NCBI GenBank assembly: GCA_949155365.1
Contig: CASCUT010000001.1
Span: 64,515 to 128,514 of the forward strand
DNA from: an uncultured Clostridia bacterium
GTDB taxonomy: Bacteria; Bacillota; Clostridia; TANB77; CAG-508
Length of the DNA stretch: 64,000 nt
Reading direction: 5' to 3'
This document shows, in pieces, positions 9,268 through 60,497 of the stretch. Position 1 is the stretch's first letter. The number at the start of each line of letters is the position of its first letter. The notes below the pieces were generated by a model. It saw only the letters and a program-made list of their open reading frames with translations. It searched no databases and was not told the DNA's origin. The position numbers and the translations under genes were made by a program.

Positions 9268-9348
9268 AAAGACGGTTCTAAAAATTTCTTAATTGTAGAT
9301 AACTAAATCAAGTTATTCACATATTAGAAATTTTCAGAACCGTCCCTA
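9268..9348. repeat. GGGAC-core element, subfamily A-like inverted-repeat pair
   Basis: GACGGTTCTAAAAATTTCTTAAT (9271-9293) and its near reverse complement ATTAGAAATTTTCAGAACCGTCCC (9323-9346), between the Rrf2 gene and nifS. Confidence 0.7.
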
Positions 9349-9355
9349 ACATTTA

Positions 9356-9754
9356 TTATTTCATTAAGTCTTCTAAGGTTTTACTATTTACATATTCGTT
9401 AATTGTATTGTCTAGTCCCTTCCAAAAAGCATGGGTTTTACAATTTTCTTTTCTTGTGCAAGTTCCTTCTTCTGTTAGACAGTCAATAGGAGTTAACTCT
9501 CCCTCCGTTGCTCTTAGGATTTCTCCTATGGTGTATTCATTTGCTTTTTTGGCTAGTCGATATCCTCCATTATTTCCTCTTGCTGTTTCTAAGTATCCCT
9601 TTTTCGCTAGTTTTGCAATAATTTGTTCTAGATATTTATTAGATATTTCTTGTCTTTCTGCTATCTCTTTTAAGGAGATAAAATTTCCATTTTCATTCAT
9701 CGCTAAGTCAAGCATTACTCTTAGAGCATATCTTCCCTTTGTTGATATTTTCAT
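9356..9754 (-). CDS. Rrf2-family transcriptional regulator (IscR/CymR-like)
   Basis: MKISTKGRYALRVMLDLA... winged-helix N-terminus and a Cys cluster (C..C.....C) typical of Fe-S-binding Rrf2 proteins; sits upstream of nifS-nifU. Confidence 0.85.
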   Translation of the reverse strand: MKISTKGRYALRVMLDLAMNENGNFISLKEIAERQEISNKYLEQIIAKLAKKGYLETARGNNGGYRLAKKANEYTIGEILRATEGELTPIDCLTEEGTCTRKENCKTHAFWKGLDNTINEYVNSKTLEDLMK

Positions 9755-9805
9755 TCTCTTCTTCCTCCTATTGTGATTATACTACTAAACTAGTAGGATT
9801 TGCAA

Positions 9806-10732
9806 CTATTTTTCAATTTTACTTGTAATCCAATCTAGTACAAATGCAAAAACTTCTTCGCGATTTACTTCATTTAGCATTTCATGTCTGCCATTTGGAA
9901 ATAGTTTTAAAGTAACATCATCTTTTCCTGTTTTCTTTAGCATTTGATAAACTCGTACTACACCTTTTCCTTTTTCCCCTACTGGATCTTTATCTCCTGA
10001 AAAAATTAGGATAGGAACATTCGGTGTTTTAGCAATATTCTTCTTTTTATTCAAGTACATACTTCCTGTAAATAATTCATAATAAGCACTAACTGTAAAT
10101 TTGCAATTTGGATTCGTATCTTTGATATGTTCTTCGATTACTTTTTCATCACTTGTTGTCCAATCTACACTTGTTTTATTTGGTTTAAATTGACGATTAA
10201 AAGAACCTGTTACCAAAGAAGCAAGTAATTTACTTTTATATTTTTTTCCTTTGCATAACATGATGAATTTAGCAAGTAATTTTCCTGTTAACAAGCCTGT
10301 CTTCTGTCCACTTGTTCCAGTAATAATAATACCATCTACTTCATCTTGATATAAAGTAGCATATGTTCTAGTAAGCAACGACCCCATACTATGTCCCATT
10401 ATGATATATGGAATTTCAGGATACTCTTTTTTTATTTTATTTTGCAAAATATGAATGTCTTCTGCTAAATAAAACCATCCTTTTTCTTCTGTAAAATATC
10501 CTAATTCTTCTTCCGTTTTTGCTGTCTTTCCATGTCCTAAATGGTCATGACCTACTACAATAAATCCATTGTTAGCAAGAAAATTAGCAAACTCATCATA
10601 TCTTCCAATGTGTTCTTCCATTCCATGTACTAATTGAACAACACCTTTATATTCACTTACACTCTTATTCATCCATTTTCTAGCATAAATTTCTTTTCCT
10701 GTACTAGAAATAAAACTAAATTCCTCTATCAT
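9806..10732 (-). CDS. alpha/beta hydrolase (lysophospholipase / monoacylglycerol lipase-like)
   Basis: HGMEEH oxyanion region, nucleophile elbow GHSMGS, C-terminal GDKD and H of the catalytic triad. Confidence 0.7.
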   Translation of the reverse strand: MIEEFSFISSTGKEIYARKWMNKSVSEYKGVVQLVHGMEEHIGRYDEFANFLANNGFIVVGHDHLGHGKTAKTEEELGYFTEEKGWFYLAEDIHILQNKIKKEYPEIPYIIMGHSMGSLLTRTYATLYQDEVDGIIITGTSGQKTGLLTGKLLAKFIMLCKGKKYKSKLLASLVTGSFNRQFKPNKTSVDWTTSDEKVIEEHIKDTNPNCKFTVSAYYELFTGSMYLNKKKNIAKTPNVPILIFSGDKDPVGEKGKGVVRVYQMLKKTGKDDVTLKLFPNGRHEMLNEVNREEVFAFVLDWITSKIEK

Positions 10733-57749: not shown

Positions 57750-58085
57750 TTATCTTACTATAATACTTTCAAAAAATCTTTCTTGGAATTCTACTAACGC
57801 TTTTATTGCATCGTCTGAGTATTCTTTTTTCTCTGGTACTACCACCAATTTATCCTCATTATCGTTTGTTCTATGTATTACTGCGATACATTTTCCTTTA
57901 AAATTCTCAACTGGCTCAAATACTCCTAGCACATAACAATCAAGTTCTTCTCCATCTCCACTCATTGTATTTGGAACATATCCATAATTTACTGGATAGA
58001 TAAATCCATGCTTAGGATGTTTTGACCCCATTGGTCTATCTATTTTTACCTTTATGATACTTCCGATATATTGTTTTGAATCCAT
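57750..58085 (-). CDS. inorganic pyrophosphatase-like protein (short form)
   Basis: YPVNYGYVPNTMSGDGEELDCYVL resembles the family I PPase metal-binding motif (NYGFIP.T...DGDPLDVLV); only 111 aa. Confidence 0.5.
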   Translation of the reverse strand: MDSKQYIGSIIKVKIDRPMGSKHPKHGFIYPVNYGYVPNTMSGDGEELDCYVLGVFEPVENFKGKCIAVIHRTNDNEDKLVVVPEKKEYSDDAIKALVEFQERFFESIIVR

Positions 58086-58235
58086 TTTATTCTTTCTTCC
58101 TTATTTCAATTATTCTTTATTTCTACATGTTCTCTTGGCAAGGTAATTACTCTTTTAATATAACTTTTGATTTTAAATTAGCCTTTGCCCTTCTATTAGA
58201 AATGGTTTCATCGATATGCTTTTTTACCATTCCAT

Positions 58236-60452
58236 TTATTCTAGTTTTTCTTCTTCCTCTGGTACAATTTCAAAATCTATTTGTCTTAAAATTTTATTAG
58301 CACTTTTTACTCTTATTTTTACTTTATCACCTATTTTATAAAGTTTCTTTGTTCTTTCTCCTAATAGAGTTTTTCTATTTTCGTCATAAATAAAATAGTC
58401 GTCTCCCAAATCATCAAAACGGATTAATCCTTCTACTGTATTTTCTAATTCTACAAACATACCAAAAGAAGTAACCGAAGAAACAATTCCCTCATATTCT
58501 TCCCCTATTTTATCTTGCATATATTCTGCTTTCTTGATGTCAATACTATCTCTTTCTACTTTTTGTGCTATTTTTTCACGTTCCGAAGATTGTTCTGCAT
58601 ATTTGGTCGCTTTTTCTGCATATTCTTGTTTCCAGTTTTCTTGTACATTGTATCCTTTTTCAATGTAATGTGAAATCATGCGATGAATATATAGGTCTGG
58701 ATATCTACGAATTGGGGAAGTAAAATGGCAATAATAATTACTTGCAATTCCAAAATGACCTTTGTTTTGGCTTTCATATCTTGCTACTTTTAAAGTTCTT
58801 AAAATTAAAGTAGAAATGACTCTTTCTTCCTCTTTTCCTTTGATATCTTCTAGCACTTCTGCAAATGCTTTTGGATGAATGTTGTCTTTACTTCCTTTTA
58901 TTTTATAACCAAAATTGTATAGGAATTTATTTAACTCCTCTATTTTTTCTTGCTCTGGCACTTCATGCACACGATAAATAAAAGGTGCTTCTAACCAATA
59001 AAAACGTTCTGCCACTGTTTCATTTGCTGTTAGCATAAATTGTTCAATTATTTCATTTGCAAAAGAAAGTTCATACTTCTTTACATCAATCGCAAATCCA
59101 TTTTCATCTAACACAATTTTTGTCTCTGGTAAATCTAAATTTAAGCTACCTTGTTTTTCTCTTCTTCTTTTCAAAATTTGAGCCAACTCTTCCATTCTTT
59201 TAAAATGTTCCATATATGGCTTATATTTTGTTACCACTCCTAATTCCTTTTCTAATTTTTTAATTTTCTCTTTTGCCTTGTCTATTTCTTCTATTCTTTC
59301 GCCTTTTTCTTCCTTGTTTGCATATTTCAAAAGGATAGCAACATCAGAATAATTCATTCTTCTAGTTACTTGAATAATCGATTTTTGAATATCGGAAGAA
59401 ACGACTTGTCCTTCCTTATCAATTTCCATCATGACAGATAAAGTAAATCGATCTTTTCCTTCATTTAAACTGCAAATTCCATTAGAAAGTTCTCGAGGTA
59501 ACATAGGAATCACTCGGTCTAACATATAGATACTAGTTCCTCTTACGATTGCTTCTCTATCTAGCTGACTTCCTTCTGTTACATAGTAACTAACATCTGC
59601 AATATGAACCCCTAGCAGATAGTTTCCATTTTCTAATTTTTTTACTTGTACTGCATCATCTAAATCTTTGGCATCTTCACCATCGATGGTAAAGATTTCT
59701 TCTTCTCTCAAATCTAAGCGATTCGGAATATCTTTTTTGCTAATTTCCTCTTTTATACTCCTAGCTTCCTCTACTACTTTTTCTGGAAATTCGTAAGGGA
59801 GACGATATTCTTTAATTAAACTTAGCATATCTACGCCTGCTTCATTTATATTTCCCAGTACTTCAATAATTTTCCCTTCTGCGTTTTTACCTTTTTCTGG
59901 ATACTTGGTAATTTCAACTAAAACCTTACTATTGTTCCTTGCTTTTCCCATATTTTTCTTCGAAATAAAAATATCGGTTCCAAATTTCCTATCATCTGGT
60001 ACTACAAAGCCATAATTTTGACTTTTTGTAAACACTCCCACCAAAGAATCTTTCTCACGAGATAAAATCTTAACCACTCTTCCCTCTTCATGATGGCCAT
60101 TTTCTCCTTCTTCTATCCTTTCGATTAATACCTTATCACCATGTAAAGCACCTTTTTTATTGGTTTTTCCAATGTAAATCTCATTTTCTCTATGTTCCAC
60201 TTTAACAAAGCCAAACCCTTTTTCATTGGCACGAAAAATTCCAGCCAAATACCTTCCTTGTGCTACCAAAGAATATTTTGACTTTCTATTTTTCTGTATT
60301 TTATACTCTTCTTCTAAATGATTTAATACCTCTACAAACGTACTATATTCTGTTTTAGGTACACTTAATATACTTGCCATTTCCTTTGCTTTCATTGGTA
60401 CATAAGATACTTCTTTCATAAAATCTATAATTAACTTTTCTTTCTCTTCCAT
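58236..60452 (-). CDS. rnr: ribonuclease R
   Basis: Cold-shock-like N-terminal domains, RNB domain (TIDGEDAKDLDDAV, HFGIAS..YCHFTSPIRRYPD), C-terminal S1 domain. Start set at MEEKEK after GAAGGAG. Confidence 0.9.
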   Translation of the reverse strand: MEEKEKLIIDFMKEVSYVPMKAKEMASILSVPKTEYSTFVEVLNHLEEEYKIQKNRKSKYSLVAQGRYLAGIFRANEKGFGFVKVEHRENEIYIGKTNKKGALHGDKVLIERIEEGENGHHEEGRVVKILSREKDSLVGVFTKSQNYGFVVPDDRKFGTDIFISKKNMGKARNNSKVLVEITKYPEKGKNAEGKIIEVLGNINEAGVDMLSLIKEYRLPYEFPEKVVEEARSIKEEISKKDIPNRLDLREEEIFTIDGEDAKDLDDAVQVKKLENGNYLLGVHIADVSYYVTEGSQLDREAIVRGTSIYMLDRVIPMLPRELSNGICSLNEGKDRFTLSVMMEIDKEGQVVSSDIQKSIIQVTRRMNYSDVAILLKYANKEEKGERIEEIDKAKEKIKKLEKELGVVTKYKPYMEHFKRMEELAQILKRRREKQGSLNLDLPETKIVLDENGFAIDVKKYELSFANEIIEQFMLTANETVAERFYWLEAPFIYRVHEVPEQEKIEELNKFLYNFGYKIKGSKDNIHPKAFAEVLEDIKGKEEERVISTLILRTLKVARYESQNKGHFGIASNYYCHFTSPIRRYPDLYIHRMISHYIEKGYNVQENWKQEYAEKATKYAEQSSEREKIAQKVERDSIDIKKAEYMQDKIGEEYEGIVSSVTSFGMFVELENTVEGLIRFDDLGDDYFIYDENRKTLLGERTKKLYKIGDKVKIRVKSANKILRQIDFEIVPEEEEKLE

Positions 60453-60476
60453 TCCTTCTCCTTCAACTAACCAACT

Positions 60477-60497
60477 TCCCAATTAGGGACAGTCCCT
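60477..60497. repeat. GGGAC-core element, subfamily B single arm
   Basis: TTCCCAATTAGGGACAGTCCC, identical to 11361-11381. Confidence 0.8.

Follow-up and report, generated by a model that had tools for sequence, protein, structure and literature searches.

The described systems closest to the repeats treated here are built around Y1 transposases of the HUH type. In TIRtrons, genes for TIRYT proteins, which resemble the transposases associated with repetitive extragenic palindromic (REP) sequences (REP-associated tyrosine transposases, RAYTs), are flanked by inverted repeats sharing the motif GGGGWSAS, and some families of these repeats are moderately abundant (Di Nocera et al. 2013, PMC3733652). 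TIRYT proteins are considered equivalent to TnpA-REP subclass 2.1, a subclass that comprises almost the whole of RAYT group 1 (Quentin et al., PMC6006769). Proteins of this subclass are long and carry C-terminal Bac_DnaA_C, HTH_23 or HTH_28-like domains, no REP-like sequences were reported beside their genes, and their consensus, GGGG[AT][CG]A[CG], is unlike the DnaA box (PMC6006769). RAYT group 1 also occurs in Clostridia, with flanking 16-mers of about 12 copies (Bertels et al. 2017, PMC5581495), and according to a preprint only RAYT groups 2 and 3 are associated with REP doublets forming hairpins (REPINs) (10.1101/2021.07.10.451892). Here, a stretch of 64,000 nucleotides from an uncultured Clostridia bacterium (assembly GCA_949155365.1, contig CASCUT010000001.1, positions 64,515 to 128,514; henceforth the window, numbered from its first letter) was analysed, whose intergenic regions carry palindromic elements of four types, A to D, with GGGAC in common. 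These elements are likely REP/REPIN-type repeats of a lineage-specific system around a domesticated, single-copy Y1 transposase of the RAYT kind. The membership of type A in this RAYT-linked system is strongly supported; type D, with GGGACGGAG in common, probably represents another kind of unit within this superfamily, and types B and C are plausibly related through motif and architecture. We regard the system as a new variant, i.e., a REP/RAYT system of the TIRYT branch in a lineage for which the literature examined holds no description.

The consensus unit of type A is TAAATTTTAGGGACGGGTCTAAAAATTTA, 29 nt in length, and it is present in the window in the following elements, some of which contain inner 9-mers resembling DnaA boxes.

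9262-9356: type A long element, a decaying pair, between iscS and the gene of an Rrf2 regulator.
51735-51798, plus strand: type A solo unit (51735-51763) with an inner pair of boxes, in the spacer between the csoR-like gene and a gene for a 144-aa protein.
52258-52351: type A long pair, one unit on the plus strand (52258-52286) and one on the minus strand (52325-52351).
54327-54430: type A pair without boxes, one unit on the plus strand (54327-54355), a 46-nt spacer, and one unit on the minus strand (54402-54430).
52258-54430 (2.17 kb): segment bounded by the two A pairs, with an intrinsic-terminator-like hairpin and a gene for a 601-aa protein.

The element at 9262-9356 has a left arm, AACTTTAAAGACGGTTCTAAAAATTTC, in which the core is mutated to AAGAC, and a right arm (9327-9353) with GGGACGG on the minus strand; it folds at -18.4 kcal/mol (z score -6.7) and is conserved with point changes in six other strains. 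The pair at 52258-52351, the first three bases of which are the stop codon of the 144-aa gene, folds at -29.8 kcal/mol (z score -9.9), and the pair at 54327-54430, situated between the divergent 601-aa and DUF1064 genes, at -30.6 kcal/mol (z score -10.8). Inverted arms of type A reach 37 nt at 92% identity with a 30-nt spacer and 44 nt at 86%, and the 29-nt arms are 100% complementary between loci.

The candidate enzyme was found in a related metagenome-assembled genome (MAG), Lapin-018_bin83, where two direct and one inverted A units bracket an open reading frame (ORF) of 253 aa at positions 3669-4430 of locus L039 (related loci and contigs are given by such numbers), the flanking unit being identical to the 29-nt type A unit. 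This ORF matched Pfam Y1_Tnp with 44.8 bits (cut-off 23), and its best NCBIfam match was REP_Tyr_transpos with 66.8 bits, below that model's cut-off of 80. A homologue search yielded 1,214 proteins of about 250 aa, one of which had been named "REP element-mobilizing transposase RayT/XRE" by the Joint Genome Institute (JGI). The HUH histidines and the Y-x3-NP motif (H60, H62, Y120, N124, P125) were invariant in an alignment of 43 homologues, and the sole PDB sequence match was 4ER8, the TnpA-REP of E. coli. The C-terminal 70 residues form a helix-turn-helix with matches to HTH_3, HTH_23 and HTH_28 (HTH_23 in 19 and HTH_28 in 9 of the 43 homologues), for which the predicted model (mean predicted local distance difference test score 85.5) is a generic five-helix bundle resembling the DNA-binding domains of resolvase, DeoR and KorB. 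A likeness of this domain to DnaA domain IV was considered but not supported: Pfam gave no Bac_DnaA_C signal, a sequence search of the PDB at E <=10 returned no DnaA chain, DnaA was missing from the top 50 Foldseek matches, and hhalign against E. coli DnaA domain IV gave a probability of 0.2%. The gene order pyk-gene-recJ(-relA) was usual wherever the flank sufficed, for homologues of 51-100% identity, while two more distant homologues (47-49% identity) are located elsewhere; among the 41 loci with units described below, a single one has the gene. The Y1 HUH gene behaves as a single-copy, syntenic and vertically inherited gene and is regarded as a domesticated transposase.

Inverted units bracket the gene in ten out of ten distinct loci (L039, L052, L054, L056, L068, L070, L071, L073, L088, L089), in all of which the upstream core lies on the coding strand (in L068 as AGGACGG). 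The flanking units are as follows.

L039, L052 and L073: ...TTTTAGGGACGGG(T/C)(C/T)TAAAAATTTA
L054, L088 and L089: GGAAATTTTAGGGACGGGGC(A/T)...
L056: CAAAAGGGACGGTTCTAAAAGTTTA
L070: GAAATTTCAGGGACAGG...
L071: GAGATTTTTGGGACGCACCCGAAAATCTC
L068: TTTTTAGGACGGAC

Although the homologues are only 47-100% identical, the core (A/T/G)GGGAC(G/A) is kept in nine of the ten loci (the exception again being L068), whereas the stems differ: TAAATTTT/AAAATTTA, GGAAATTT/AAATTTCC, TAAACTTT/AAAGTTTA, GGGATT/AATCCC, GAGATTTT/AAAATCTC and AGACA/TGTCT. When 18 unit variants were aligned, GGGACG was invariant, 87.7% of the stem cells paired and three pairs showed a compensatory change. The invariant GGGACG stands at the 5' side of the loop beside the A/T-rich stem, and no GTAG is present. 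The proposal of an initial annotation of the window, namely a system like REPs or bacterial interspersed mosaic elements with a RAYT or IS200-605-type partner, thus stands for type A, where units flank the Y1 gene and the core is constant; for types B, C and D the connection is one of motif and architecture.

Compared with TIRYT systems, the enzyme is likewise a Y1 HUH protein longer than classical RAYTs, with Y-x3-NP and a C-terminal helix-turn-helix of the HTH_23/HTH_28 type, and the inverted repeats likewise carry a G-rich motif near GGGGWSAS and occur in moderately abundant families, as singles, dimers and clusters. By contrast, the gene is flanked by REP-like, self-complementary hairpins of only 29 nt; the core (A/T/G)GGGAC(G/A) matches GGGGWSAS at 6-7 of 8 positions (in the forms GGGGACGG, AGGGACAG, AGGGACGG and TGGGACGC), and many units contain a DnaA-box-like 9-mer; and the host is an uncultured low-GC Clostridia lineage unnamed in those surveys. 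With the REPIN-RAYT systems of Pseudomonas, Escherichia and Neisseria (PMC3116915, PMC5581495), the elements have in common that they are extragenic imperfect palindromes of 20-40 nt, doublets of which form long hairpins. As in RAYT groups 2 and 3, the Y1 gene is present in one copy, keeps its neighbours, is passed on vertically and has its own repeats on both sides; single units give the impression of doublets in decay, and in some lineages the repeats have outlasted the gene. Unlike in those groups, the 5' GTAG head is missing and the conserved element is loop-proximal, the stems are A/T-rich and weak, the enzyme has an extra DNA-binding domain, and copies so far number tens per MAG as against tens to hundreds of flanking 16-mers. 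The IS200/IS605 insertion sequences (IS608, ISDra2) share the catalytic core of HUH plus tyrosine as well as subterminal hairpins recognised on single-stranded DNA, with a bias for the lagging-strand template (PMC6006769), but their ends are same-strand hairpins instead of inverted repeats, and they are multicopy and move whole, whereas here the gene is single-copy and syntenic and only short ends are dispersed. Finally, CGTC-tagged REPs (Di Nocera et al. 2013) are similar in that CGTC is present (CCGTCCC being the complement of GGGACGG), A/T pairs start the stems and most are head-to-head dimers; however, their CGTC is a terminal tag, left unpaired, beside a stem of 8-9 bp that closes a loop of 4-5 nt, they have a CCA tail and they lack an associated transposase, whereas in type A the CGTC lies inside an 8-nt loop on a stem of 10 A/T base pairs with a bulge, the CCA tail is absent and a transposase-like gene is associated.

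By analogy with E. coli TnpA-REP and IS608, the A/T-rich arms would pair in transiently single-stranded DNA, and the enzyme would recognise the hairpin together with the GGGAC-containing segment and nick and rejoin the strand there. Over evolutionary time, such nicking and rejoining may have placed copies between genes. The long type A elements look like transposase-less miniatures of the enzyme cassette. Doublets, once in place, are unstable and collapse to one unit via short direct repeats.

For the survey of type A beyond the window, one genome per species was scanned with the pattern TTAGGGACGGNNCTNAAAATTT. The pattern matched 41 loci, almost all of them from uncultured Clostridia MAGs; Lapin-018_bin83 had at least 22 exact matches and Lapin-001_bin26 at least 13. 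Type A is not confined to the window. The related DNA derives from uncultured Clostridia MAGs of rabbit, chicken and human gut. The 29-nt unit was often identical across loci and genomes, and solo units were as conserved as pairs. Units occurred as solos and as inverted pairs with spacers of about 12-35 nt (about 12-46 nt when the window is included), the paired elements being 70-105 bp long with terminal inverted repeats of 29-37 nt that start and end with TA. In the same genomes, variants with GGGACGG but other arms were found (TATAGGGACGGAGCAAAAAATAT, GGGATTAGGGGACGGTCCTAAAAATCCC, TGCCAAAAGGGACGGCCTTTTTTGGCA). By crude ORF calling, 62 of 70 classifiable units were intergenic (39 between tandem, 19 between convergent and 4 between divergent genes; 8 nominally coding), and published REPs are likewise distributed mainly over such intergenic contexts (PMC3733652). 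With tandem copies collapsed, GGGACGG lay on the G-rich strand, i.e., the lagging-strand template, in 32 of 41 solos, which fits a single-strand mechanism. Units were kept at orthologous sites in sister genomes (L023/L037, L002/L014, L009/L031), where the spacer diverges and the arms are kept. Searches with Rfam 15 at gathering and permissive thresholds gave only generic hairpin noise of the microRNA-precursor kind on the elements of the window, and at the gathering threshold no family was found on the elements in 18 related loci; the remaining matches were RNase P RNA, a sub-threshold T-box and RNAs unrelated to the elements. A further GGGAC-bearing motif, GGGACGCCCCTTTTCGTTCCAAAATGGAACGCTGGGGACACCCC, was noticed in relatives (L007 1636-1669, L023 4976-5009, L027 6158-6191, L015 6217, L001 116-151); it was not seen in the window and matched no Rfam family.

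Ten contigs from the same species as the window reveal turnover of the elements. In L044, a 67-bp indel between direct ATAAATTTT repeats leaves a solo in place of the pair at 52258-52351, and in L045 and L047 a 76-bp indel between CTAAAA repeats does so for the pair at 54327-54430; polymorphic "empty" alleles always kept one complete unit. Since the unit is nearly palindromic, short direct repeats recur in both arms of a pair, and we infer that slippage across the long hairpin explains these precise collapses from pair to solo. Lapin-001_bin26 lost the enzyme gene by a collapse of the same sort: at 90-94% identity to L039, its locus L008 is shorter by exactly the 913 bp between the flanking inverted units, of which a single degenerate one is left at the pyk/recJ site (L008 6899-6976 versus L039 3458-4457). 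Polymorphism between strains was found in the form of pair versus solo at two loci, whereas of the target-site duplications that the initial annotation had also considered none was visible beyond the conserved terminal TA. Between species of 72-81% nucleotide identity the unit positions differ; the copA/copZ spacer, for example, has a pair in L011, a solo in L026 and nothing in the window. The segment 52258-54430, which has a raised G+C content (0.379 for 52001-54000 versus about 0.3 elsewhere), is absent in the sister species represented by L011, where the stop codon of the 144-aa gene is 14 nt from ACTTGCAC, a sequence which in both genomes stands ahead of the DUF1064 gene. In L026, the 144-aa gene has a homologue of the 601-aa gene on its opposite side, and no units accompany this homologue. 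The 601-aa gene had no match in Pfam, NCBIfam or PADLOC.

Type D was located at three places in the window.

30079-30165, minus strand: type D cluster of three to four direct, partly degenerate units, TAGACATNGGGACGGAGATTTT on the minus strand.
31383-31408, minus strand: type D solo, AGACATGGGGACGGAGATTTTGTCT on the minus strand, intergenic in a paralogous gene cluster.
38291-38447: type D triple, with units at 38294-38324 (plus strand), 38370-38400 (minus strand) and 38414-38444 (minus strand).

All copies are located in the 3' regions of genes. The cluster lies between the stop codon of a gene for a 332-aa protein and a terminator hairpin upstream of tgt, and the triple sits after ileS and before the ribosome-binding site of the next gene. 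In the triple, two direct 44-nt minus-strand units and one inverted unit form a 34-bp hairpin (-40.4 kcal/mol, z score -13.2), inside which the contigs L060 and L062 break. The inverted arms of D measure 36 nt at 97% identity with a 41-nt spacer, and together with the arms of type A they bear out the inverted pairs that had been annotated. The sequence GGGACGGAG is shared between D and an A-like variant of related genomes. A metagenome scan for D, in a collection that evidently lacks the JGI samples with the window's species, returned four matches, of which three are apparently due to chance and the fourth is L077, an unrelated metagenome contig of 44% GC. There, three direct and two inverted copies of the D-like GGACAYGGGGACGGAGATWYTGTCC (2846-2945 and 5199-5265) bracket a two-gene sugar-nucleotide cassette, named by inspection as sugar-phosphate nucleotidyltransferase-like and aminotransferase-like. 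In strain L065 (1-620, compared with window 30056-30224), an extra cassette of about 440 bp stands between D units upstream of tgt; it contains promoter-like and terminator-like sequences and has GGGACGRARATTTTGWCTTAACTATAACA on both flanks. The ORF at 33911-35740 on the minus strand (609 aa, no Pfam match) contains thirteen tandem 78-nt (26-codon) repeats of 63-73% identity at 34022-35077, and because similar N-terminal coding stretches are found in the ORFs at 30141-31139 and 31887-33374, the three constitute a paralogous cluster that is variable between strains. Similar terminator-like hairpins on the minus strand at 29960-30010 and 31300-31345, about 50 nt downstream of D units, read AAGAG[C/T]AAACT...ATTGCAACT[A/G]AGAGTTT[G/A]CTCTT, followed in one by a T run, and are probably the paralogous 3' ends of duplicated genes.

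Types B and C differ from A and D in how the motif is presented.

11346-11425: type B cluster, with an extra arm ACAAATTGTCCC at 11346-11357, a palindrome at 11361-11391 and a second copy at 11400-11425.
60476-60501, minus strand: type B copy, AAAAAGGGACTGTCCCTAATTGGGAA on the minus strand, directly upstream of the start of the RNase R gene.
14187-14202: type C 16-mer, the inner part of a 15-bp hairpin (14180-14214) between convergent genes.
41644-41684: full type C element CCATTGGGGACGTTTCCTTTTGGGTAATTTGTCCCTTTTGG, inverted CCAWWRGGGAC arms with a spacer of about 19 nt.

The palindrome of the B cluster is perfect over 31 nt (TTCCCAATTAGGGACAGTCCCCAATTGGGAA), the second copy (AAAAAGGGACTGTCCCTAATTGGGAA) adjoins the ribosome-binding site of a pseudouridine synthase gene on its upstream side, and the cluster folds at -11.3 kcal/mol (z score -5.3). 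Since contigs break or switch at B (L087 ends at the cluster, and L086 joins it to another gene), B is repeated elsewhere in the window's species. The copies at 60476-60501 and 11400-11425 have the same orientation relative to the gene. The type C hairpin at 14180-14214 folds at -13.7 kcal/mol (z score -7.4), and the full element lies between a DUF1653 gene and the start codon of ileS, downstream of a T-box leader. This leader (42107-42340, minus strand), upstream of the DUF1653 gene and ileS, scored 82.6 bits, below the Rfam gathering score of 93. In related genomes, C was found in at least eight loci and in either orientation relative to the next gene, e.g., upstream of glyS in L071 in the opposite orientation. 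Exact searches of viral contigs for B, C and D gave no match for any of the three. A role of C as a translation-initiation signal was rejected, although C ends in CCCCAATG, as most of the downstream ORFs comprise just 10-41 codons. In B and C, GGGAC/GTCCC themselves make up the stem; the earlier description, in which short A/T-rich flanks pair and present GGGAC in a loop, hence applies to A and D, as weak single hairpins, and fails for B and C. The latter two are best treated as a single family in which inverted CCAAWWRGGGAC arms enclose a spacer, of 1 nt in B and of about 19 nt in C.

All four repeat types of the initial annotation were located in the window, and about 20 units or arms were counted where at least 17 had been claimed. 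The GGGAC pentamer was mildly enriched (44 occurrences versus 32 +/- 5.7 in dinucleotide shuffles, 3 of 100 shuffles being as high) and ranked second among over-represented 5-mers in a maximal-order Markov model (44 versus 20.5 expected). Crude ORF calling placed at least 20 of the 44 sites between genes, and 24 once over-extended ORF starts were corrected; the intergenic share of the window is about 12.5%. As had been stated for nearly all intergenic GGGAC, 21-22 of these 24 sites belong to types A-D, the exceptions being a terminator at 24088 and, at 50738, a site that really lies within the copZ gene. GGGACGG occurred 12 times against 0.6 expected, 11 times in type A or D. The sole coding GGGACGG, at 18695, is within a 183-nt tandem duplication of 95% identity (18618-18983) in a 190-aa plus-strand ORF. 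In an unbiased repeat search of the window, A, B and D were the sole genuine dispersed intergenic families, and all three have GGGAC. The shared core across subfamilies was recovered as well: all four consensus sequences match T[AG]GGGAC[AG][GT], and a 5-mer common to all four arose in 9 of 20,000 composition-preserving shuffles, a test that is partly circular because the families had been picked by the GGGAC motif.

These comparisons bear on the alternative that survives best, which we nevertheless consider unlikely: that only A, perhaps with D, belongs to the RAYT system, B and C being unrelated hairpins that carry GGGAC by chance or as a favoured G+C clamp. B and D share just 5 bases (P = 0.52), A and C as well as B and C share 6 (P ~0.06), the motif of B and C is in the stem and not the loop, the families were selected by motif, and in no case was the enzyme gene flanked by B or C. 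However, A and B share 8 bases (P = 0.005), as do C and D (P = 0.005), and the four consensus sequences fit one pattern with the shuffle result given above. Moreover, the RAYT homologue in L070 is flanked by units with AGGGACAG, the core of B, there are intermediates (TGCCAAAAGGGACGGCCTTTTTTGGCA in L022 and CAAAAGGGACGG in the flank of L056), and B and C co-occur with A in the same genome set.

Several observations weigh against the interpretation of the elements as repeats of a RAYT-linked system. Single units fold weakly, type A at -2.7 kcal/mol and type D, with its 5-bp stem AGACA/TGTCT and 15-nt loop, at -1.5 kcal/mol. The evidence from stem covariation is modest because a slide by one column still pairs 75% in the A/T-rich arms, and the strand bias of solos is confounded with transcription direction. 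The search for a RAYT gene, positive at ten related loci, found none by tblastn in the window or in 30 contigs of its species that span this region; Lapin-001_bin26 lacks the gene and keeps at least 13 units, and therefore units can persist without the enzyme; and none of B, C and D was ever seen flanking a transposase gene. Within the species there was no empty site and no new insertion, only collapses or rearrangements. At 30.1 and 31.4 kb, duplication of the paralogous genes may have multiplied the D units as well. The enzyme is placed in the helix-turn-helix branch (TIRYT, corresponding to TnpA-REP subclass 2.1 and RAYT group 1) by its features and not by a tree with reference sequences. 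Lastly, many units are at orthologous sites, and therefore a host-selected function also fits.

Such a function would mean that the hairpins are RNA- or protein-binding elements selected by the host (stabilisers in the 3' untranslated region, terminators or 5'-leader operators), with the Y1 link being secondary. This is compatible with a REP/RAYT origin, and as a full explanation we judge it somewhat less probable still than unrelated B and C hairpins. REPs have been proposed to terminate transcription and stabilise mRNA at the RNA level (PMC3733652), and the conservation of orthologous sites in sister genomes, with arms conserved while the spacer diverges, would agree with selection. The position of several elements points the same way. 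The B arm GGGACTGTCCCTAATTGGGAA stands immediately 5' of the ribosome-binding site, in the same orientation, in all four cases (11400-11425, 60476-60501, L086 and L054), and because of this consistent position a cis-regulatory leader function is a live alternative for B that fits equally well. D units lie between stop codons and terminators, C lies just before the start codons of aminoacyl-tRNA synthetase genes in two genomes, and solos are biased to the coding, G-rich strand. On the other hand, C occurs in both orientations relative to the downstream gene and A in all contexts and both orientations, no Rfam family matches, positions differ between species, and regulation alone would leave the flanking of the Y1 gene in 10 of 10 loci unexplained.

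A descent from classical miniature inverted-repeat transposable elements (MITEs), i.e., from DDE insertion sequences that duplicate a target site such as TA, like the Correia elements of Neisseria, is improbable. Correia/NEMIS and other bacterial MITEs are also intergenic, 70-150 bp long, with terminal inverted repeats and long hairpins, and the pairs described here, of 70-105 bp with 29-37-nt terminal inverted repeats and TA at the ends, would pass for such elements; assemblies break there, too. However, no duplication beyond the terminal TA and no empty site were seen, "empty" alleles retain a complete unit, solo arms are as conserved as pairs, and the only gene found between such arms is a Y1 HUH and not a DDE gene, which speaks against the MITE-like option that had been put forward for the window. 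DNA uptake signal sequences as in Neisseria or Haemophilus, which occur roughly once per kb and often as inverted pairs downstream of genes, are hardly credible as an explanation: the short G+C-rich core does occur in both orientations and often as inverted pairs between genes, but its density is far below about 1 per kb, the units are almost absent from coding DNA and are conserved over 29 nt including the hairpin, and the core sits on several different flanks in units that bracket a transposase-like gene. Readings as a sigma-factor promoter, CodY box, parS, KOPS/Chi or a restriction site were rejected for unfit spacing, orientation or distribution.

If the elements are indeed repeats of a RAYT-kind enzyme, a mainly proteobacterial REP/REPIN-RAYT system would be extended to an uncultured low-GC gut Clostridia lineage, and there would be a counter-example to the view that the helix-turn-helix RAYT branch has no REP-like partners. 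The system offers natural variants with and without the enzyme gene and a core separable from covarying stems, which opens the recognition of GGGAC in the loop, the role of the DnaA box and the decay of repeats after enzyme loss to experimental tests. As the units break metagenome assemblies and extend ORF calls, knowledge of them also improves MAG annotation.

The DnaA-box-like module was defined as a 9-mer with at most one mismatch from TTATCCACA. It was found on the inner (3') side of 15 of 77 units and on the outer side of none, at a background density of 0.25 such 9-mers per kb. The first box is mostly TGTGGATAA, at an offset of +27 or +28 and 4-5 nt from the inner foot of the unit. Outside the window, units with a box include those of L054, L088, L089, L015, L022, L038 and L040. 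The box brackets the enzyme gene symmetrically in L054 and L088, in the latter of which box and unit encode the C-terminus of the protein (...SYPQNGNFLPRP); in L089 it is upstream of the gene, and the contig ends just after the gene. Boxes are not enriched in the window overall (18 versus 21 expected), and 4 of the 18 are within the three long A elements, which hold an inverted pair of boxes: TGTAGATAA (9294-9302) and TTATTCACA (9313-9321) in 9262-9356; ATGTGAAAT (51768-51776) and TTATCTACA (51788-51796) in 51735-51798, the right arm of which is missing; and TGTGGAAAT (52292-52300) and TTATCCACA (52311-52319) in 52258-52351. Because the long A elements of 94-95 nt consist of unit, TGTGGATAA-like box, spacer, TTATCCACA-like box and unit, they have the architecture of two cassette ends joined. 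A box module at a fixed offset in the units is not reported in the RAYT/REP literature examined. It is conceivable, though we give the idea little weight, that the helix-turn-helix RAYT branch uses a two-part end, composed of an A/T hairpin presenting GGGAC(G/A) and a TGTGGATAA box bound by host DnaA or by the enzyme, and that cargo is mobilised with such ends. Binding of the box would then melt the A/T-rich duplex next to it, allowing the hairpin to extrude and be cut, and the mobility of the repeats would be tied to replication initiation proteins. The 94-95-nt A elements would be transposase-less miniatures of the whole cassette, DNA between two ends, such as the 2.17-kb segment 52258-54430 or the two-gene cassette of L077, would be movable as cargo, and REPIN-like populations would not be limited to RAYT groups 2 and 3, contrary to 10.1101/2021.07.10.451892.

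The window as a whole has about 31% G+C and a GC skew that is strongly negative all along, and its housekeeping genes, which include iscS/Rrf2, tgt, queA, ileS, RNase R, secG, copA/csoR and ftsH, are mostly on the minus strand. RNase P RNA was detected with Rfam, and a tRNA scan of the window found none. Upstream of the csoR-like repressor gene, a palindrome ATACCC...GGGGTAT (51629-51664) is identical in 10 of 10 strains; it resembles CsoR boxes and is presumably the operator of this repressor. An RsmB/F-type methyltransferase (55765-56668, minus strand) is represented by two overlapping ORFs of 119 and 194 aa in the window and in all strains read there, which points either to a frameshift that is conserved or to a gene that is split. 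In a related Clostridiaceae MAG, an OLE RNA was identified with 297 bits (L022 6430-7084, minus strand), and just past one of its ends stands the hairpin TGCCAAAAGGGACGG(G)CCTTTTTTGGCA (6417-6428), a second copy of which follows about 200 nt on (at about 6202).

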